Shown piece after piece: positions 3,653 to 34,131 of a DNA stretch of 51,209 nucleotides (its first letter is position 1; every line of letters starts with the position of its first letter). Source of the DNA: a virus (Duplodnaviria; Caudoviricetes); the IMG/VR virus record IMGVR_UViG_3300027743_000035, positions 1-51,209 of that record; one strand, 5' to 3'. The notes below the pieces were generated by a model. It made no database searches. It saw nothing but the letters and a program-made list of their open reading frames with translations, and was not told where the DNA came from. The translations under genes and the position numbers were made by a program.

Positions 3653-6325
3653 CTATGGTTTAGGAGTTGTGCCACCGTAAGGGTTATGAGTATAAATAAA
3701 GCGACCTTCTTCTAAGCCAGCCCCATAAGTTTGACAATGGCATGAAATGTGGGCAACTAATCTAACACCCATATCTTCTACTTTAATTATTTCTTCCCAT
3801 CGGAAACCATCTTTATCTCGCACTGGCAATTTAAGGCCAAGTGCTTCTGGCGCTTTTTTACTAGACCTATCATCTAATGTCAAGGGCGTTGTAACAGAAC
3901 ATATTAATTCAATGCCGCTTTCACTAGTTAGCTTAACACATTTAGAGTGAGCAATTTTATTATTATTCACATCTATATATGTCAAGCCATCTAAACTGTC
4001 ATTTAGAATTTCAATTTGGGAGCCAATCATAACTTGATTAGCTCTAATACCGTTAGGCATAAAACTATTAACGTCAACACAATCGTCAACATAGCCACCG
4101 CCGCCACCGCCAGCGCCACTATCACCGCCAGAGCCAGCAGAGTTAGGCGAAGTGCCAGACGCCACAAAGTAACGATCAGTCCTTAGCAAATCATCGGGGT
4201 TTGTAGTATAAACATAAGGAACAGAGCCAACACTATCGCCATCTAAGCCGGGGTCGTCAACATATACAATCCAATAAGTAGAAAATGGCACAACAACACT
4301 ACCAGCGTTCCAACTAAGAGTAAGTAAAGTGCCACCTGCACCAGCGACTTTACGAACGTGAGCCGGAATATTTACAGTAACATTTGAAGCGCCCACAGTA
4401 TATGTAGGAGTTAAATTAGTTGAGTTTGAAATATTAACAATCTTTTGAGTGTTGTAAAATGTCGGGTCAGCAACACGGCCAGTAGTAGGACTAATTTTAG
4501 ATAATACAGTGGCGTTTGCTGTAACAGCGTTACCCAATATACCAGCCGTAAGACTTACCGCAACCCAATCACCGGGAACATTCTCACGGCTAACGTGCCG
4601 AGCTTCAATGTTATAAGCTGCACCTTTAAGTATGTCAACAATAATAACGCCATTCTGTGACGCAATTCTAGGCACTGGCGCAAAGTAAGTCCAAAGACTT
4701 GCAGTAGTTAGTTTGTGACGAACCTCTGTATGTTTAACGCGCACTGGCGGGTCTGTCCATGTAACCGACATTGCATCTTTAATCGCGGCTGGCGAGCCAA
4801 CACTAATACTAATGTTAGTTACAGTAAAGTTATTGACAGGATATTTAGTTAGGTTGTCGCGCTTAACACCAGTGCCAGTAGTAAAGGCATTAGCAACTGT
4901 GCCAGCGCCCCAAATAGAAGCATGAATTTCTTTAAGCAACATTGAAACGCCACCATAAGGGTCAATTTCATGCCGCCAAACTCTAAACAATTTAACCCAA
5001 CCAAACCTGTCGCTAGTATAGCGCACAACCGAGTAGGCTTGAGCTTGCATAGCCTTCATTTTCCATGAAGCTGTAAACTCGCCCTGATATTGGCCGGAAT
5101 TTAATTTAAGTCTAGCTAGACGTTGTGCCAGCACATGACTTAATACTTGTGGAAAATCCTGAGTGCGCCTAGATTTAAAGCCAAGGTTTGCTTCATAAAC
5201 ACTATCGCGCACAGCCGGATAAGCGAACGGCTGATATAATGTATTGACTGAAGGATTAATAAATTTACCAATTACTGAATTAAACTGCTCGCTCATTCCT
5301 TTCCATTCCAGCCAGCGAACAGTGCTATCTTCAGTTACATCATCGTCAGTTAATTCAACAGCAATTTGTGCCGTATCATCAACATTTGCATAATAACTCC
5401 ACAATCCACCGGGGTCTAGCAACCGGCCAATCAAACCATCGCAAGTAATTTTATCTTCATTACTTGTGTGTTCATCATCTGTTGACAACAACAAGTCAGT
5501 ATAGTAGCCAGCTACTTCACAAGCATTGGCACCAGCGATGAAAGTATTAAAGTTAATATCTTCAGGCGAAATACCCCGCCCACACATTAGCATCCATTCG
5601 CCAGTTTGGACATTTTGAACGCGCCAGCCAAGTAAATACCAAAGCGCCTGTAGTGCATTGTTACGGCCTATAGGCTGGCTATTGCCATCAAGTGTTGCAT
5701 AAGCCCATGTTGTCTGATCGTCGGCCCTGTGAGTGCCAGAGCCGCCCCTAGTGCTATCTCTACGCGGGTCATATACTAAAGCGCCTTCGCATACTTGGGT
5801 ATAGCGGCTAGGAACGCCATCGGGTAACTTTTCTTCATCAACTAACCAAGCATACTTTACATGAGCAACGCCAGTAAAAACGCTTGTGCTAGTCCAAAGT
5901 GTTCCACCGCCAGCACTTAATGCAGTATCACCCGGCACACCTAGTTTAGTTGTGCGAGAAAGTAAACCCACATATTTAGTTTGAACAGCGCCCGCCGCAC
6001 TTATAGCCAAGTCAGTTTCAATATAAAGCTCCTGAAAGCTTTGTATTCTGTGACCAGCTACAGCAAGCACTTCATCGAAATTAGTTTGAGCCGTTCCCCA
6101 TACTTCCCAAAAGCGAACGTCAAGAGGCGCAGCTATTTTACCAAACATTATCTTTCGTGCAGTTTCAGGGTCAAGGCTCTTATTTAAATTATTTACATTC
6201 TTAGAAGGTGGCGCTGCCTTCTTACCACCAAATCCAAAGACACCGCCGACAATTTTAGTGACAAAGCCGACAACGCCTTTGACAACCTTAACGGCTGCTT
6301 TAAATATTTTCTTTACGAAACCCAT
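3653..6325 (-). CDS. Tail tip / host-specificity protein (J-like) with a C-terminal Hint (intein-like) domain
   Basis: Last large tail gene; has YDPR and NNALQALWYL segments typical of J-like tips, an FN3-like region and a Gly linker, then C...THN. Confidence 0.85.
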   Translation of the reverse strand: MGFVKKIFKAAVKVVKGVVGFVTKIVGGVFGFGGKKAAPPSKNVNNLNKSLDPETARKIMFGKIAAPLDVRFWEVWGTAQTNFDEVLAVAGHRIQSFQELYIETDLAISAAGAVQTKYVGLLSRTTKLGVPGDTALSAGGGTLWTSTSVFTGVAHVKYAWLVDEEKLPDGVPSRYTQVCEGALVYDPRRDSTRGGSGTHRADDQTTWAYATLDGNSQPIGRNNALQALWYLLGWRVQNVQTGEWMLMCGRGISPEDINFNTFIAGANACEVAGYYTDLLLSTDDEHTSNEDKITCDGLIGRLLDPGGLWSYYANVDDTAQIAVELTDDDVTEDSTVRWLEWKGMSEQFNSVIGKFINPSVNTLYQPFAYPAVRDSVYEANLGFKSRRTQDFPQVLSHVLAQRLARLKLNSGQYQGEFTASWKMKAMQAQAYSVVRYTSDRFGWVKLFRVWRHEIDPYGGVSMLLKEIHASIWGAGTVANAFTTGTGVKRDNLTKYPVNNFTVTNISISVGSPAAIKDAMSVTWTDPPVRVKHTEVRHKLTTASLWTYFAPVPRIASQNGVIIVDILKGAAYNIEARHVSRENVPGDWVAVSLTAGILGNAVTANATVLSKISPTTGRVADPTFYNTQKIVNISNSTNLTPTYTVGASNVTVNIPAHVRKVAGAGGTLLTLSWNAGSVVVPFSTYWIVYVDDPGLDGDSVGSVPYVYTTNPDDLLRTDRYFVASGTSPNSAGSGGDSGAGGGGGGYVDDCVDVNSFMPNGIRANQVMIGSQIEILNDSLDGLTYIDVNNNKIAHSKCVKLTSESGIELICSVTTPLTLDDRSSKKAPEALGLKLPVRDKDGFRWEEIIKVEDMGVRLVAHISCHCQTYGAGLEEGRFIYTHNPYGGTTPKP

Positions 6326-19351: not shown

Positions 19352-22300
19352 TCACCTAACAGTTATGGTTCGATTTTCAAACGGAATAATAAGCACTCTG
19401 TTTTCTTCAACAGGAATGATTAGCGGTTCTGGCTCAACTGTCAATACCCTATTTTCAAACGGAATAATCAATGCTCGTTCTGGCGGGGTATTTAATAAAC
19501 CACCACTTTCAGCAAAACTAATCTCTGGCGCATAAGTAGAAACGCCTAGCGTAATTAACTGATCAACATAACCCAAACCAGCTAAAGTTATTGCTGGCAG
19601 ATTTGCAGTAATATTTGTAGTAACAAGATCAAATGCGCCACTACCAAGTCCAACAATAGTAATTTCTGGCGGGAATGTTGACAGATTAAGCGTAGCTAGA
19701 CTATTCTTTTGGCCTAGGGTGGCTAATTCTATCGCCGCTGGCGTGGTTTCTAGCGCCTCTGAAGCTAGATCGTGCTGCTGGCCTAGCGCGGCACTGGCGA
19801 GCGCCGGGGCCGCTGTCTGAAGCCCTAGAGAAGCGATGTTATGAGTTTGGCCGATAGAGACAAGTGAAATAGCCGGAACGCCGCTAACAACAGGTAAAGT
19901 AGAAGCGCCAGATGTTGCTGATAATGATGATAGACTAATAGCCGGTATATCAGTTGCTATACCTAGTGAAATAAAGTCAGCCCTACTAAGTAAGGTTGGT
20001 TGACTAATAACAGGTATAGGTGTTGTTATATTTGTAGTGCTAAAATTAGCTGTGCTAGTAATAGCAGCAATAGTTACTACAGAAGCCGATGTAGCTAAAT
20101 TAGCAGAAGTTAACTTATGAGTTTGACCAAGGCTAGGTAGCGAAATAACAGGTGGATTAGTTGCAACAATTAACGGGTCAAGTCCAACAGTTGACCCCAT
20201 GCCAGTTTTAGAAATAACGGCAGCGGCAGTTTCAACAGGAATTGTAGTAATATTATGAGTTTGAGCAATAGCCGGTGCGCTTAAGAAAGGCGCAGTAGTA
20301 GCTACAGCCAAAGCAGTTAATACACCAAATACCACCATTGCAGCTTGAGCAATAGCCGGAATTGGAGTATTAAGATTAGCCGCGCTTATATTGTGTTTTT
20401 GTCCAATAGCCGCCGATGTAATAGCCGGTGGAGTAGTGGTAACTGAATTTGCAGTTAAATTAGCTATTGATACAATTGATGCAGTTGATATAGCAGGTGC
20501 CGATGTTCCCACATTGATTGTAGCAATATTATGCTTTTGGCCGAGTGTGGGCAACGATACAGCCGGGGCCGATGTTACAATATTTATTGAGCTTAATAAT
20601 GCTTTACTAGTGAAAACCGACAGGCTAATTGCCGGTGCCGATGTTACTATATTTGTTGAAGCTAAGTTAGTTGCCAACAAAGCTAGAGCAGATTGTGAAA
20701 TGACGGGAACAGGAGTTGCTATATTTATTGTATTTAGAGCAACAGTTTTGTTAAATACAGCTTGTGATATAACAGGGATAGGAGTTGTTATATCAAATGT
20801 AGCCAGATTATGTTTTTGTCCAACAGTTACCGCATTTATTAACGGAGCCGAAGTAGTGATATTTATATTAGAAAGGCTATGTTTTTGGCTTATTGTTGGC
20901 GCTGTAATTGCTGGCGCTGAAGTAGCTAGATTTGTTGAAGCTAATACATGGCTTTGACCAACTGTAACAATACTAACGGCTGGCGCAGTAGTGGCAAGAT
21001 TTAAATTAAGTAAGGCGTGTGTCTGGCCGAGCGCCGCCGCACTGATCGCCGGGGCAGGAGTAGTTATATTAAGAGCAGTAAAATTATATGCTACAATTTG
21101 ACCAGCAGCAGCCAGAGTAATTTCAGGAACATATGCAACAGTAACTTGCTTTAAAACTCTAAAATAATCTACTTCAGCAAAACTACTAGAATTACCACCT
21201 AATGAAATGCTATCTGTTGCGTTACTATCTCTAGTATGAATAGCATCATAAATTTTAAAACCATCATTAGGGGTTTCACTAGTGCTTGTTATAGTATATA
21301 ATACTTGATCGCCAAGTCTAATAGTAATATTGGCTGTGCCGGGAGCCGCAACCTTACGCGCTTTAAATTGAACTTTAACACTTTCGCCAGCTACACCGCC
21401 TGAATTTTGTGAAATACCACCATTAGCAACACTACAAGTAAATCCGTAAACACCAGCAGTTATATAAGGTGCAGTAGCGCCACCAGTGCGAACACTAGTT
21501 GGCGTCCAACCTACAGGAGCCGCGCCAGCGCCATCTAACGGCGCATCCATTTCAGGATTAGTGTGAGTTTCTTGCCAAACTTGAAATGAGCTAGAAACAT
21601 CTTGGGTAACTAAACCATGTGCTGTAGTAATAGCCGCTTGACTAATTGAAGGCGCACTAGTTGTTATATTAGTAGAAGTTAAAGCATCAGCGGGTGGGTC
21701 GTCATTCCAAACTACAATATTATAGGCAACCCAATCTTCAGTTGCACGAGTAAATACGCCGGGATTTTCAGCAGCAGCGTTTGCAAAACCATTTATTGTT
21801 TTATCAGCACTACCAATAGTGCAACCATTAGCAGCATTGCTAATAGTGCTAACTTGATGATTAGCATAACCGCTTGGCGCAGCAGTTGATGAAGTTATAG
21901 TATCGCCAGCAAAAAAGACATTAAAAAGAGCATCTACAGCGGCACCAGTAGCATTACTTATACTCGGTGGGTCAGGATTAGTTGAAGAACCTTTTGCCGG
22001 TGTAGGATAAGCTAAATTTATTACTTTACCAGTGCTAGGTCGTATTCTAAGAGCTTGAACAACAATAGCTTCAGAAACACTTAAATTTATTGTTAAAGCC
22101 GGAATAGTATTAGCAGTTGTGACAATAAATCTAGCAAAAGCAGCTTTACAAGCATTTGTATTATCTGCTACTTGACTTGGTATAAGCCAACCGTCAGCCG
22201 CCGATGTTCCACCTAAACTTAAAGTTGGGTTGCCATCAGTAGCAATATATATTATAATTACATCGTTAGGTAATGCGCCGCTTGCCAGCGTAGCCAAACT

Positions 22301-22369
22301 AGGGGTATAAGCGGTCGTCCCGGCATTACCAGCTATGGCAGTCCATAAATTTCTAGTTGGCGCAACCAC
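19352..22369 (-). CDS. Long repetitive virion fibre/rod protein with about 25 repeats of 23 aa and globular N-terminal and inserted domains
   Basis: Tandem repeats such as NFTALNITTPAPAISAAALGQTH; C-terminal LIIPFENR repeats. Confidence 0.7.
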   Translation of the reverse strand: MVAPTRNLWTAIAGNAGTTAYTPSLATLASGALPNDVIIIYIATDGNPTLSLGGTSAADGWLIPSQVADNTNACKAAFARFIVTTANTIPALTINLSVSEAIVVQALRIRPSTGKVINLAYPTPAKGSSTNPDPPSISNATGAAVDALFNVFFAGDTITSSTAAPSGYANHQVSTISNAANGCTIGSADKTINGFANAAAENPGVFTRATEDWVAYNIVVWNDDPPADALTSTNITTSAPSISQAAITTAHGLVTQDVSSSFQVWQETHTNPEMDAPLDGAGAAPVGWTPTSVRTGGATAPYITAGVYGFTCSVANGGISQNSGGVAGESVKVQFKARKVAAPGTANITIRLGDQVLYTITSTSETPNDGFKIYDAIHTRDSNATDSISLGGNSSSFAEVDYFRVLKQVTVAYVPEITLAAAGQIVAYNFTALNITTPAPAISAAALGQTHALLNLNLATTAPAVSIVTVGQSHVLASTNLATSAPAITAPTISQKHSLSNINITTSAPLINAVTVGQKHNLATFDITTPIPVISQAVFNKTVALNTINIATPVPVISQSALALLATNLASTNIVTSAPAISLSVFTSKALLSSINIVTSAPAVSLPTLGQKHNIATINVGTSAPAISTASIVSIANLTANSVTTTPPAITSAAIGQKHNISAANLNTPIPAIAQAAMVVFGVLTALAVATTAPFLSAPAIAQTHNITTIPVETAAAVISKTGMGSTVGLDPLIVATNPPVISLPSLGQTHKLTSANLATSASVVTIAAITSTANFSTTNITTPIPVISQPTLLSRADFISLGIATDIPAISLSSLSATSGASTLPVVSGVPAISLVSIGQTHNIASLGLQTAAPALASAALGQQHDLASEALETTPAAIELATLGQKNSLATLNLSTFPPEITIVGLGSGAFDLVTTNITANLPAITLAGLGYVDQLITLGVSTYAPEISFAESGGLLNTPPERALIIPFENRVLTVEPEPLIIPVEENRVLIIPFENRTITVR
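19500..21085 (-). repeat. 23 tandem ~69-bp (23-aa) coding repeats
   Basis: Consensus xLxxxN(I/L)xTxxPx(I/V)SxxxxGQxH, counted by eye in the translation. Confidence 0.85.
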
Positions 22370-30871: not shown

Positions 30872-31024
30872 TTAAATGCCTTGTGGGCTAAATAATAGAA
30901 TTAGAGTAAGTAATAGCCCGACTGAACCAGCAATTAAGTTTGTGCGGTCAGTCCTGTAACTAGTTGCTATTACAACCACGAAACATACGGCTATTACTAT
31001 AACTAATACAGCCAAAACGTCCAT
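30872..31024 (-). CDS. 50-aa protein with two transmembrane segments (holin candidate)
   Basis: Translated by hand (below the ORF-track cut-off): MDVLAVLVIVIAVCFVVVIATSYRTDRTNLIAGSVGLLLTLILLFSPQGI; GGGGA RBS. Confidence 0.45.
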   Translation of the reverse strand: MDVLAVLVIVIAVCFVVVIATSYRTDRTNLIAGSVGLLLTLILLFSPQGI

Positions 31025-31284: not shown

Positions 31285-31589
31285 GGCGCTTCCTTCGATC
31301 AGGCCGCAGCTTGGAGCCTCACCGGGTAGCTGTCAACCCGCCACGAACCATCAAGGTTCCGCCGCGCATAGTAATGGCTATAAGGGTTAAGCCCCTCATT
31401 AATGTAAGCCCTATACTCGGCTTCCGCCCTAGTCATTTCCGGCCTTTCCGCCTTTGTTTCCTAGCCATCTTAGCGGCTTTGCGGCGTTTGTCAATAACTT
31501 TAGCACTGACTTGACGATATTTATAAGGCACGGCTGGCATGGCTTCCTGATAGGCTCGCTCCAATTCTTGATTTACTATATAATTATCA

Positions 31590-32270
31590 TCATCCACCTA
31601 GGCGCTCCATTTCAGCGGCTATTTTAGTGTGGTAGCCACCTTCAGCATAATTGCTTCCATTATACCCGCTGGCGAACGGCCTACAATCGTCAGGGTCAGT
31701 GCTGATCTGGCGTAGCTCTGGCAACAGACCGGCTAGGCGAATGTAACCGACTAACAGATAGTAATGGTGATACTCACTCTTAGTTGTTGAGAAAGCCATT
31801 TCAAGAGCCGAAGTAAAACCCATGTGAGGATACCAAAAACCCATGATCTGAAACTTGCCCCAACTAGCCGACTTAAAAGCCGGGTCTATCTCGCCAGTGC
31901 AAATAGCGTTAGTAAGTTTATCCCAACTATCTTCATTATAACCGCCAGCAGAAGAATTAGAATAGGAAGTAGTGCTAAACTCGCCACCAGTAATTTGATG
32001 GAATTTGTGACGTTCAAAAAGTATTTTAGGCCGACCATTACTATCGTAACCGCTACCGCTACTTTCCACGTTAGCAACAGATACAAGTTGTTCATAAGAG
32101 CAATCAGCCATATCAGCCAGAGAACGGAGTTGTTCTTCAGTTACGCCTTTAGCATCTTTGTTTACAAATACTTCTTTAGTTGCATCGCGGGTAGCTGGCC
32201 CACAAGCGCCATCGCTAATTATATCGGCATTATTATATATTAGCCAATCTTGGTAGTCGGACATAAACAT
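31590..32270 (-). CDS. Endolysin, N-acetylmuramidase (DUF3380-type) with a short PG-binding-like N-terminus
   Basis: VESSGSG...PKILFERHKF...SASWGKFQIMG...FASGYNG; N-terminal DGACGPAT. Confidence 0.9.
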   Translation of the reverse strand: MFMSDYQDWLIYNNADIISDGACGPATRDATKEVFVNKDAKGVTEEQLRSLADMADCSYEQLVSVANVESSGSGYDSNGRPKILFERHKFHQITGGEFSTTSYSNSSAGGYNEDSWDKLTNAICTGEIDPAFKSASWGKFQIMGFWYPHMGFTSALEMAFSTTKSEYHHYYLLVGYIRLAGLLPELRQISTDPDDCRPFASGYNGSNYAEGGYHTKIAAEMERLGG

Positions 32271-32288
32271 ATTAAATACCTTTGATAT

Positions 32289-32322
32289 AAAAAAAGGGGG
32301 CAGCACTTCCTATGCTACCCCC
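32289..32322 (-). terminator. Rho-independent terminator closing the secreted-protein operon
   Basis: GGGGGTAGCA-7 nt-TGCTGCCCCC followed by T7. Confidence 0.85.
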
Positions 32323-32347
32323 TTCCCCTTCATTCAGCGCGTGTCGC

Positions 32348-32740
32348 TTACGGCTGGACGAAAAGCCAAACCCCAACAAGCTGATTGCTGGCACTGGACG
32401 AGCCAATACCAAGCGTTCCGTTGCTGTTCTGCGAGCCAGCAAGGCCAAGGCTAAACGTGCTACCCTGTTGCGTGGTCGAAGAAACGTGCTGCGACTGCGA
32501 GCCTTGATCGTTGCCCGACATAATGCTTTCGGACAGGCCAGCAGAAGCCGCGCCACCGCTCGACTGTTGAGCAGTCACGCCAAACAGAGCCGATGCAGAC
32601 GAACCCTGCGAGCCAGAAATGGCCGTAGAGTTAGACTGCGATTGACCTGCGCCAAACGCAACGCCAAAGTCAACAGCCATCGCCGGGGTAGCAAAAGCAA
32701 CCGAAGCGAGCAAGCCAGCAAGTGCAAAGATTTTCTTCAT
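32348..32740 (-). CDS. Secreted Ser/Gly/Gln-rich protein (putative fibre/amyloid subunit)
   Basis: Sec signal MKKIFALAGLLASVAFATPAMA; 108-aa mature chain with no K, R or C; GAAGGA RBS. The CDS is well supported; the function is inferred. Confidence 0.7.
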   Translation of the reverse strand: MKKIFALAGLLASVAFATPAMAVDFGVAFGAGQSQSNSTAISGSQGSSASALFGVTAQQSSGGAASAGLSESIMSGNDQGSQSQHVSSTTQQGSTFSLGLAGSQNSNGTLGIGSSSASNQLVGVWLFVQP

Positions 32741-32760
32741 TCCCATTTCCTTCATCAATT

Positions 32761-32908
32761 ACCGGACAACTTAATTTAATAGGGTGTCCGGTTCCCCCTA
32801 TCCCTAATAGGTGGAGCTTGGCGTTGGCCGACGCGGGGTGTTGCGCCTTACGCCAAGCTCCGACGATAGAAAGCCACAAGTTGTAGCGTGTGGACAGGCT
32901 TCTATCGT
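32761..32908 (-). other. Structured intercistronic RNA element (four adjacent hairpins)
   Basis: Stems ACCGGACA/TGTCCGGT, CCTAT/ATAGG, GGAGCTTGGCGT/ACGCCAAGCTCC and ACGATAGAA/TTCTATCGT. Confidence 0.7.
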
Positions 32909-32920
32909 TTAGCTGTTACT

Positions 32921-33841
32921 TTATCGCGGGGAGCTAGCGATTACTGCAACAGTTTTGTTTTCCGCACTTTGTTGAGAAATTACCACAGAGGCCGCTTCTG
33001 GCGTAATTTTATTATTATAGGCCACTTTTGGTTGCGGAGTTTGACCGGGAGCCGGTTGAGCCGGTGAAGCTAGATGTTGAGAGCCATTTGAGCCAAGCAA
33101 TAGCAGCTTGTCACAAGCATCAGCCGTTGACTTGCCAGCATCAGGCCCGCCACTATCACTAGTGCAAATGCTCCAAATCATCATGGACATTAGTTTGCCA
33201 GACAATTCAGGTTGGTGCATATTAAGAGCATTAACTGCCGCCATGCCAAACTTTTCAGCGCGGCGTAGTGACTGACAGGATTTATCAAACTTAACCCCTG
33301 CACCGCCAACTGAAATACCTAGTGGGGCAGCAGAAACCCCGCCAGAAACAGTGCCGCCACAATAGTCAGAGCTAAAGCTAGAGCTAGCCGCAAGCGGAAC
33401 GGCATTGTTCGTCCTAATCTCAGTCTGGCGACGGTTACGGGTATTCCAAGTTTGGTTTACCGTAACGCCCTGTTGATTAGCTTGGTTAGCATCAAGGTTC
33501 TGCGATTGATCTTGGCCTTGCATCTGACCTTGATCTTGCCCTTGCTCATTACTTGACGTTTGAGCTTGGCCTTGTGTGTTACCGTTAGAATTGCTAGTGC
33601 TTTCGCTGGCAGAGCCAGAAATTGCGCCAGAGCTAGACTGACTAGTATTCTCGTTATTGCTAACGCCAATACCAGCATTATTGTTAGAGGCGTTATTGTC
33701 AGAGCTTGCACCGCTGACAGAGCCAGAGTTAGCGCCAGCGTTTGAAGCTGACTGGCTAGCCAAGTCATTGACGTTAATGTTTTGAGCATTAACCGACGCT
33801 GCACCACATAGAAGTAGCGCGAAAATAACCTTCTTATTCAT
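32921..33841 (-). CDS. Secreted protein with an N-terminal S/N/Q/G low-complexity region and a 4-Cys C-terminal domain
   Basis: Sec signal MNKKVIFALLLCGAASVNA; QGQDQGQMQGQDQSQ; CGGTVSGGVS...GISVG...DKSC. Confidence 0.75.
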   Translation of the reverse strand: MNKKVIFALLLCGAASVNAQNINVNDLASQSASNAGANSGSVSGASSDNNASNNNAGIGVSNNENTSQSSSGAISGSASESTSNSNGNTQGQAQTSSNEQGQDQGQMQGQDQSQNLDANQANQQGVTVNQTWNTRNRRQTEIRTNNAVPLAASSSFSSDYCGGTVSGGVSAAPLGISVGGAGVKFDKSCQSLRRAEKFGMAAVNALNMHQPELSGKLMSMMIWSICTSDSGGPDAGKSTADACDKLLLLGSNGSQHLASPAQPAPGQTPQPKVAYNNKITPEAASVVISQQSAENKTVAVIASSPR

Positions 33842-33868
33842 TGCTTTACCCCCAAATCAGGAACACAC

Positions 33869-33896
33869 ACGATACGCCTTTCCGTGGCGCTGTCAA
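33869..33896 (-). promoter_or_regulatory. sigma70-type promoter of the secreted-protein operon
   Basis: TTGACA-16-TATCGT. Confidence 0.55.
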
Positions 33897-33912
33897 TAGG
33901 CTTGTTTGATGT

Positions 33913-34131
33913 TTAAATTCGCGGCTTTTCCGTTTCTATTTTATTTGGCCTAACCCAAGTTAATTCCTCAACCAAGGCTGGCGCATAGACAACATCATTT
34001 CCTGTTCTTTTCCTAAATGCCCACAGTGAGCCATCCCCTAACTTGATAAGGTTAGGCGGCTCGCCCCATACTAATTTCATTTCCCCTTCACAACCTTCAA
34101 AGGTCACATTATATCTTTTTGGGTCTGTCAT
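33913..34131 (-). CDS. Hypothetical protein
   Basis: 72-aa ORF co-oriented with its neighbours. Confidence 0.5.
   Translation of the reverse strand: MTDPKRYNVTFEGCEGEMKLVWGEPPNLIKLGDGSLWAFRKRTGNDVVYAPALVEELTWVRPNKIETEKPRI

Follow-up and report, generated by a model that had tools for sequence, protein, structure and literature searches.

The curli (csgBA) and Fap operons pair a nucleator with a major subunit rich in glutamine (Q), asparagine (N), glycine (G) and serine (S). CsgD is a LuxR-family regulator, and the Fap system, with minor and major subunits of Q/N/G/S/alanine (A)-rich sequence, needs the FapF channel and further genes. Phages also carry morons for exported envelope proteins, such as lom and bor of lambda, sp and imm of T4 and llp of T5, and H-type pseudoknots occur in 5' leaders, as in the T4 gene 32 operator and the small pseudoknot riboswitches. 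Here we describe a two-gene cassette that resembles each of these in part. It lies in IMGVR_UViG_3300027743_000035, an IMG/VR virus record taken here in full (51,209 bases), which is estimated complete and has a guanine plus cytosine (G+C) content of 44%; this entire stretch is referred to below as the window. The cassette consists of a promoter-like site, a gene for a 306-amino-acid (aa) protein (the large protein), a structured spacer, a gene for a 130-aa protein (the small protein) and a strong terminator, all on the minus strand (Table 1). New here are two protein families that are near-obligately paired, a two-gene cassette that moves between unrelated phages and into bacterial chromosomes, and a covariation-supported pseudoknot outside Rfam, which is a candidate translational or stability element.

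The likeness to curli lies in layout and composition: two adjacent genes encode Sec-exported proteins, the second product is G/S/Q/N/A-rich and free of cysteine (Cys), a short motif is common to both partners, and LuxR-family genes stand beside three chromosomal copies of the pair. A sequence-only reading of the window had likened the pair to the curli and Fap operons, and kinship with them is not supported. Neither protein matches the Curlin repeat (Pfam PF07012) at E ≤ 1, and none was found in a six-frame search of the whole phage, for which the E. coli control was recovered. CsgG (PF03783) and CsgF (PF10614) are absent from the phage, in agreement with the same reading's statement that no secretion channel is encoded; CsgE was not searched. 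Where curli has a five-rung solenoid, long strands are predicted here, and the partner is a 306-aa protein with a four-Cys domain and a disordered region, in a cassette that is mainly phage-borne. Membership in the curli family was therefore dropped on the curlin-repeat, CsgG/CsgF and solenoid tests. With Fap the cassette has in common the pairing of a minor with a major subunit and the Q/N/G/S/A-rich sequence, whereas only two genes are conserved here; a general scan of both proteins gave no Pfam match of any kind, and FapF was not searched specifically.

Curli-related genes have been described in phages before. Zaragoza-Solas et al. (2020; PMC7029224) report a cluster in pelagimyophages made up of CsgF, CsgG and hypothetical proteins, without recognisable subunits, and raise aggregation and 'sibling capture' as possible roles. 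As there, candidate genes for secreted fibres occupy a variable region of phage genomes. The two differ in that CsgF and CsgG are present in the pelagimyophages (PMC7029224), whereas the window has candidate subunits without a channel or CsgF. The earlier statement that nothing similar had been described must be tempered in view of this cluster, which is a different gene set. Term searches of open-access text, with supplements outside their scope, found no literature on the two families.

The pair is a real, co-inherited unit in fixed order. In viral contigs the large gene is followed directly by the small gene at 22 of 26 loci; of the exceptions, one locus ends 239 nucleotides (nt) after the match and three are distant partial relatives. 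Among bacterial species representatives the same arrangement was found at five of six loci (the exception being L033). A metagenome scan with the large-domain alignment as query gave 58 close loci, 47 of which have the small gene directly downstream; these are 47 of the 47 that are long enough, and the remaining 11 contigs all stop within the 250 nt that follow the domain match. The counts are not fully independent, as several of the metagenome contigs and viral contigs, equal in length, represent the same molecules. In distant metagenome relatives the small gene was found at 0 of 13 loci, nine of which have at least 1 kb of room. A reverse search starting from the small protein led, at 15 of 15 viral loci, to contigs already known through the large gene. 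The co-occurrence of homologues, which had been put forward as a check on the pairing, was in this way found almost without exception.

Bacterial copies are rare, with six loci among 185,579 species representatives in a pattern scan. In a sample of 401 alphaproteobacterial genomes, the centre genome alone was matched by a profile of the small protein. At four of the bacterial loci the flanking genes are of the housekeeping type rather than phage genes, and at three of these four a gene for a LuxR/GerE-type regulator lies directly upstream of the pair; in one of them, L031, a tRNA gene (4288-4361) lies about 0.8 kb upstream of the regulator gene. The regulator and the pair look like a small three-gene island in these chromosomal copies, and the presence of a LuxR-type regulator there suggests that the unit can work in uninfected cells. 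The holdfast-anchor proteins of Caulobacter were considered and set aside; apart from the centre genome, none of the alphaproteobacterial genomes sampled (400) matched the small-protein profile. No match to the region or to either protein came from DNA and protein searches of 50,697 phage records, run with the low-complexity filter on in a collection from which near-identical records may be missing. Near-identical short contigs (151-268 nt) of the cassette and its flanks (32250..33950) were present in four other public runs from four studies, recorded as soil, freshwater sediment and wastewater, and one of them spans the entire spacer without a difference; no RNA run was among the public runs listed as carrying the sequence. 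Close relatives of the phage or of the cassette therefore recur elsewhere.

Signal peptides of both proteins were judged by rule, from sequence and alignments, and the A-M-A and V-N-A ends bear out the Sec signals assigned earlier. In the small protein the signal reads MKK, a core and AMA/V; across its 38 homologues, to which the family figures in this paragraph refer, A is invariant at position -1 and nearly invariant at -3. As had been noted for the window, the mature protein of 108 aa has no lysine (K), arginine (R) or Cys and a single proline (P), which is terminal. Mature length is held at 107-109 aa in the family, Cys is absent from 38 of 38 sequences, and K+R is zero in 34 of 38. S, G, A, Q, threonine (T) and N together make up 75% of the mature protein, and the alignment is near-gapless down to 36% identity, with 15 invariant columns. 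When the small gene is compared with that of L056, 63 of the 130 codons differ synonymously and 11 non-synonymously, and against five relatives the differences are concentrated at third codon positions. The small gene is under purifying selection.

Conservation along the small protein alternates with a period of two: even positions from 22 to 70 and odd positions from 77 to 127 are G, S, A, Q, N and T, and the other positions are variable, polar in mid-segment and hydrophobic at both segment ends. This pattern is typical of beta strands. AlphaFold2, given the 38 sequences, predicted four strands (23-50, 55-75, 78-98 and 101-128) of 21-28 residues each, a topology that we regard as tentative. 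The chain ends in WLFVQP in the window; of the 34 family members with a residue in the last column, 33 end in x-P. This ending, together with hydrophobic residues at strand ends only and a polar middle, led us to reject a classical outer-membrane beta-barrel. Comparison with Protein Data Bank (PDB) sequence profiles gave noise at the level of the signal peptide only. The homologue search with the small-protein alignment scored 8000 candidates and returned at least 34 matches, which is not a census of the family.

The large protein combines an S/N/Q/G-rich region with a four-Cys domain, as the sequence-only reading had it. Its N-terminus runs MNKK, a hydrophobic core and VNA/Q, and the family alignment keeps an N-terminal hydrophobic stretch ending in A-Q. 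A Cys within the signal peptide of the window's protein is missing from the relatives, and no lipobox Cys is conserved. Residues 13-141 were modelled without structure, with a predicted local distance difference test score (pLDDT) of 32-47 (AlphaFold2, 97 sequences). Among 96 relatives, the length of the S/N/Q/G region ranges from 32 to 166 aa, and K and R are absent from it in 72; a SGAISGS-like motif was found in 25 of the 25 N-terminal regions inspected. The four Cys of the mature protein (C161, C189, C226 and C243) are invariant in the 97 sequences. Across residues of about 161-250 the block-mean pLDDT is 63-94, and the model of the domain has a hairpin between Cys161 and Cys189, followed by helices bearing Cys226 and Cys243.

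Neither protein matches Pfam, PHROGs or NCBIfam, and a search of PADLOC at E ≤ 0.1 likewise found none, so that a known anti-phage defence protein was rejected for both. Look-alikes in the ESM Atlas were unnamed viral or bacterial clusters. The large domain has no match among PDB sequence profiles, and a comparison of the large-protein model with PDB folds gave no resembling structure (best E = 1.2). The earlier expectation that the two proteins would be unlike ordinary globular families is in keeping with these results. In a collection of 5.8 billion proteins, 166 relatives of the large protein's C-terminal part were found at E ≤ 0.001, nearly all metagenomic and three from Novosphingobium genomes, and a profile of the domain led to 132 representative clusters among 1.84 billion proteins. 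Distant relatives of 156-290 aa consist of a signal peptide, a short S/T/N linker, the SFSSDYCGG domain and a divergent helical end, and they too match no known family. The distant short relatives (L025-L027, L033 and L109-L121) lie on phage-like contigs and have no small gene where context is available, which indicates that the domain family is wider than the paired cassette.

The motif SQSxSxAISGS is common to both proteins and is written in differing synonymous codons, as first pointed out from the sequence. Within the large protein's N-terminal region, the SGAISGS-like motif aligns onto the first strand of the small protein. A prediction of the complex between residues 21-306 of the large protein and residues 23-130 of the small protein, each with its own alignment and run without controls, scored 0.00 in two runs and weighs neither way.

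By sequence and context, the cassette is judged to be mobile between unrelated phages and a few bacterial chromosomes. Its neighbours vary and include DNA polymerase A, primase (PriCT plus DUF5906), helicase, exonuclease, terminase and endolysin, and no conserved third gene was found beside the pair. Five further carrier records, two of which are complete, contain no match to the capsid and terminase proteins of the window, and their cassette proteins are 65-80% identical to those of the window. The G+C content of the cassette is 0.48-0.55, against about 0.39-0.48 in flanking windows. The small gene stands apart in codon usage: G+C at third codon positions (GC3) is 0.56, compared with 0.22-0.46 in the other phage genes measured, and TCG accounts for 12 of its 27 serine codons, against 36 of 424 elsewhere in the phage. 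In both respects the large gene (GC3 0.40; TCG 2 of 48) is like the other phage genes. The two cassette genes differ in codon usage, and of the two the small gene may be the more recently exchanged.

These properties, together with the promoter-like site and the terminator, agree at the sequence level with those of a moron: foreign composition, variable position and unrelated carriers. In contrast to the morons named above, the cassette has two co-inherited genes of new families and an RNA pseudoknot inside it, and its carriers have no detectable tyrosine integrase. None was found in the window or in the five other carrier records; serine recombinases were not searched. The carriers look virulent, and lysogenic conversion was dropped for lack of a tyrosine integrase in the six records, within the same limit on recombinases. 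An endolysin gene is the next after the small gene in the window, as the sequence-only reading had remarked, and this adjacency is real; a meaningful link was not upheld, as an endolysin homologue adjoins the pair at only one of 26 related viral loci (L002). A spanin (Rz/Rz1) was rejected because there is no conserved lipobox Cys, both proteins have cleavable-type signals and the endolysin is adjacent at this one viral locus; with position not conserved and no lipobox, a role in lysis was dropped with it.

The spacer between the two genes is predicted to fold with a minimum free energy (MFE) of -67.5 kcal/mol (z = -4.4), and 0 of 200 shuffled sequences fold as well. Spacers range from 68 to 665 nt across 23 related loci (L024 not counted); the longer structured form is confined to the window's subclade, and other loci have 68-96 nt. 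Within the spacer, a long hairpin of the form GGAG..CUCC has changed and still complementary inner pairs in L002, L003 and L008, as judged by eye. The last approximately 45 nt form an H-type pseudoknot. Its stem 1 is of 7 base pairs (bp) (32796-32802 with 32778-32784), and an arm of 8 bases in the loop (32785-32792) makes the second helix with 32761-32768, 20 nt ahead of the ATG. The structure lies just 5' of the GAAGGA ribosome-binding site, and the binding site itself is outside the helices.

Phage and chromosomal copies alike have this pseudoknot topology ahead of the small gene. Because MAFFT alignments set the pseudoknot arms of the leaders out of register, the comparison relied on scripts, controlled by shuffles and by non-cognate pairings. 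Under strict rules (an ungapped stem of 6 bp or more, a loop helix of 5 bp or more and an end lying 10-32 nt ahead of the ATG), the hairpin and pseudoknot were found in 42 of 48 distinct leaders, with the 3' arm ending a median of 20 nt before the ATG over the 48 leaders. In 39 of the 48, no more than 5 of 100 dinucleotide shuffles reached the real score, and in 20 leaders none did. The leaders that fail are the six in which nothing was found under the strict rules, four of which have a 5-bp stem 1 with loop helices of 8-10 bp, and L008, L024 and L108. Changes in the helices are compensated. One clade has a freely varying stem 1 and a loop motif GGGGC that pairs with GCCCC; the window's clade has UAGGG/CCCUA as stem 1, and its helix between loop and downstream arm differs between phages yet stays complementary. 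In the latter clade the cognate helix is 8-10 bp long in 19 of 19 leaders (mean 8.6), against a mean of 6.0 bp for non-cognate combinations, and 12 of the 19 loops have no higher-scoring foreign partner.

Searches of Rfam gave a chance match only for 32200-34000 of the window (E = 0.71) and no leader match at E ≤ 0.5 for six other loci. The leader holds a conserved H-type pseudoknot that is supported by covariation and absent from Rfam, a regulatory-looking RNA structure before the small gene. As in the leader pseudoknots of other systems, a hairpin loop pairs just upstream of the ribosome-binding site; the cassette element differs in that it matches no Rfam family and leaves the binding site outside the helices.

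We tentatively propose, as a possible reading of the cassette, that it specifies a self-assembling beta-sheet structure in the host envelope, with the large protein as partner and the pseudoknot setting the dose of the small subunit. Once exported, copies of the small protein would pack by way of their conserved G/S/A/Q/N face and so assemble into an ordered beta-sheet oligomer or polymer (a fibre, sheet or tube) in the periplasm or at the outer membrane; a conserved face of tiny and amide residues looks like a packing surface, which is why self-assembly is suggested. The disulfide-bonded domain of the large protein may hold a position in the envelope, and its serine-rich SGAISGS-like motif may bind the small subunit or seed its assembly. 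By acting on the rate of translation or the stability of the mRNA, the pseudoknot would control the amount of small subunit. A virulent phage could profit from remodelling of the envelope during infection, as a superinfection barrier or through clumping or embedding of cells and progeny. A fibre or sheet and a closed tube or pore are indistinguishable from sequence.

Several results weigh against this proposal. Any assembly, amyloid or binding property is putative, and the benefit to the phage is speculative. As the phage encodes no outer-membrane channel, an extracellular polymer would need another route, and CsgG occurs in only one of five bacterial genomes that have the pair, 1.2 Mb away. 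The small-protein model is of moderate confidence, with a pLDDT of 74.6, and the other four models reached 57-65. Fold searches with it gave weak or generic matches only, which were long hairpins of oligomeric pores and phage tubes, with template modelling (TM) scores of at most 0.28 against PDB and at most 0.41 against BFVD and a root-mean-square deviation (rmsd) mostly above 20 Å. The large-type domain also occurs without the small gene and so has a role of its own. Two claims of the sequence-only reading proved weaker than first put: the nucleator-like similarity of the large protein's N-terminal region to the small-protein profile scored 12.9, a value reached by one of 40 shuffles, and is marginal, being barely above composition, and the two internal repeats of the small protein did not rise above composition, the hhalign score between its halves (11.8) being reached by two of 30 column shuffles.

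If assembly in the envelope is true, virulent phages build ordered protein material in the host envelope, by means of a new class of functional beta-polymer that is unrelated to curli or Fap and has no dedicated channel, and have thereby a new way to alter infected cells. The small protein, being short, of fixed length and free of K, R and Cys, would be an easy subject for biophysics.

A more specific form of this proposal, a phage-borne beta-polymer system of a new kind that does without a channel, is somewhat unlikely to hold in all its steps together. Here the charge-poor subunit of 108 aa, exported while the lytic infection runs, would stack through its conserved G/S/A/Q/N face into a cross-beta sheet or nanotube in the envelope, seeded by the prion-like S/N/Q tail of its disulfide-anchored partner. 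The pseudoknot would act as a riboregulator that doses the subunit, perhaps as the sensor of a protein or small molecule. Spread of the cassette would reflect the benefit of such a structure to any phage of Gram-negative hosts, and bacteria would occasionally have captured it under LuxR-type control.

Alternatively, hairpins of the small protein could form a multimeric pore, an oligomeric beta-barrel in the outer membrane, with the large protein as periplasmic partner or plug; permeability would be altered, receptors masked or lysis helped. The four long antiparallel strands of the AlphaFold2 model fit such a pore, and the sole fold matches, weak as they are, come from oligomeric pore stems and phage tail tubes. 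The terminal strands (VDFGVAFG and VGVWLFV) are hydrophobic and of equal predicted length and could pair between subunits, no dedicated channel would be required, which fits its absence, and the cassette adjoins the endolysin in the window and L002. Stems and tubes of this type (lysenin, aerolysin-type pores and the phi29-like knob) likewise have very long paired strands rich in S, T and G. Against these points, lipid-facing hydrophobic residues are too few, the polar mid-strand with hydrophobic ends is the reverse of a membrane belt, and the chain ends in Q-P rather than an aromatic residue. The fold matches (TM at most 0.28, rmsd above 12 Å) come with no sequence relation, the small protein has no cap or receptor domain, and 25 of 26 viral loci have no adjoining endolysin homologue. 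On balance we consider this pore unlikely.

It also seems improbable that the two proteins are soluble periplasmic effectors, binders or inhibitors of the host envelope in superinfection exclusion or lysis timing, whose composition is incidental. Periplasmic exclusion proteins are well known in phages, both proteins here have export signals, and the large-type domain occurs alone in other phage contigs in the manner of a free-standing effector. With carriers that look virulent (no tyrosine integrase in the window and the five other records), the cassette genes would act during infection. The period-two arrangement of tiny residues over about 100 positions, with fixed length and little charge, fits an assembly surface better, however, and the near-obligate pairing of the genes argues for a joint structure.

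An extracellular amyloid of the curli or Fap type, in which the large protein is a CsgB-like nucleator and the small protein a CsgA-like subunit exported through a CsgG- or FapF-type channel of the host, is very unlikely. The gene order (partner first, then the smaller and more conserved protein), the G/S/Q/N/A-rich, Cys-free small protein and the serine-rich motif in both proteins would suit it, as would the LuxR-type regulator beside three chromosomal copies, which is reminiscent of csgD. Curli-related genes in phages have a published precedent in the pelagimyophages (PMC7029224). These similarities are outweighed by the missing Curlin_rpt match in either protein (E ≤ 1) and in the whole phage, by the lack of phage CsgG and CsgF and the single, distant CsgG among the five carrier bacteria, by the AlphaFold2 model, which has no solenoid, and by the disulfide-bonded domain, which is absent from curli nucleators. 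That the genes are non-functional chance open reading frames (ORFs) in low-complexity DNA, as their strong compositional bias and lack of a known family might suggest, has a negligible probability, being refuted by the synonymous excess, the near-gapless small-protein alignment with its 15 invariant columns, the invariant Cys in 97 sequences and the conserved gene order and regulatory RNA.

Table 1. Positions of the cassette features in the window and of the regulator genes beside chromosomal copies of the pair.
Feature	Position	Strand	Basis or description
Promoter-like site, TTGACA-16 nt-TATCGT, upstream of large gene	33869..33896	-	consensus match, 10/12
Large gene, 306 aa	32921..33841	-	ORF; signal peptide, S/N/Q/G-rich region, 4-Cys domain, Pro-rich tail
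Putative signal peptide of large protein, residues 1-20, VNA/Q cleavage	33782..33841	-	rule-based reading
Low-complexity S/N/Q/G-rich region, residues about 21-135	33437..33781	-	SGAISGS-like motif, QGQ repeats
Conserved domain, residues 137-258	33068..33433	-	alignment of 97; SFSSDYCGG hairpin and helices, four invariant Cys
Structured intergenic spacer, exactly 180 nt	32741..32920	-	RNA fold
Long hairpin within spacer, GGAGCUUGGCGU...ACGCCAAGCUCC	32813..32861	-	MFE structure
H-type pseudoknot, last ~45 nt of spacer	32761..32802	-	detection script, shuffles, cognate test
Small gene, 130 aa from ATG (MKKIF)	32348..32740	-	ORF; signal peptide (1-22) and 108-aa mature protein
Intrinsic terminator	32289..32322	-	RNA fold; 10-bp G+C-rich stem, 7-nt loop, U7
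LuxR/GerE-type gene, L028	5068-5427	-	L028, L030 and L031 are two Novosphingobium genomes and one alphaproteobacterial metagenome-assembled genome
LuxR/GerE-type gene, L030	about 5112-5339	-	
LuxR/GerE-type gene, L031	5161-5853	+	

The self-contained unit described by the sequence-only reading, with its promoter-like site, two genes, 180-nt structured spacer and terminator on the minus strand, was found in full. The promoter-like site is a consensus match and does not imply a functional promoter; a consensus scan gave nine such sites in the region, against 3.8 ± 2.1 in shuffles. The stem of the terminator occupies 32296..32322 and its U7 tract 32289..32295 (z = -4.7; 0 of 200 shuffles as stable), although the terminator is absent from the consensus-scan list of such sites. 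That scan found three sites with a hairpin and T-tract, against 2.9 in shuffles. A small hairpin with a T-rich tract lies at 32873..32887 on the minus strand, 34 nt past the stop of the large gene, and may act between the genes as a weak terminator or a processing site. The ORF listing starts the small gene at an upstream TTG (32758).

Matches to PHROGs in the window comprise a major head protein, large terminase, tape measure, tail fibre, DNA polymerase, primase, helicase and a Sak4-like protein, which identify the record as a tailed phage. Its portal protein is at most 34% identical to those of deposited phages among the 15 best matches listed. The adjoining endolysin ORF (31590..32306) matches Pfam Muramidase at E = 1.6e-34. 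A start at the ATG at 32270 (MFMSDYQ) is more likely than one at the GTG at 32306, since the GTG lies inside the cassette terminator and AAAGG precedes the ATG.

Inspection of the ORFs in the stretch downstream of the endolysin revealed no spanin-like pair. Two short minus-strand ORFs are present there: one of 54 aa (31433..31597) has no PADLOC match and ends in a very basic tail, KRRKAAKMARKQRRKGRK, and one of 50 aa (30872..31024) has two hydrophobic segments and could be a holin candidate. In the structural block, a minus-strand ORF of 1005 aa (19352..22369), for which PHROGs gave no match at E ≤ 1e-5, has a GC3 of only 0.22 and a G+C content at second codon positions (GC2) of 0.53.

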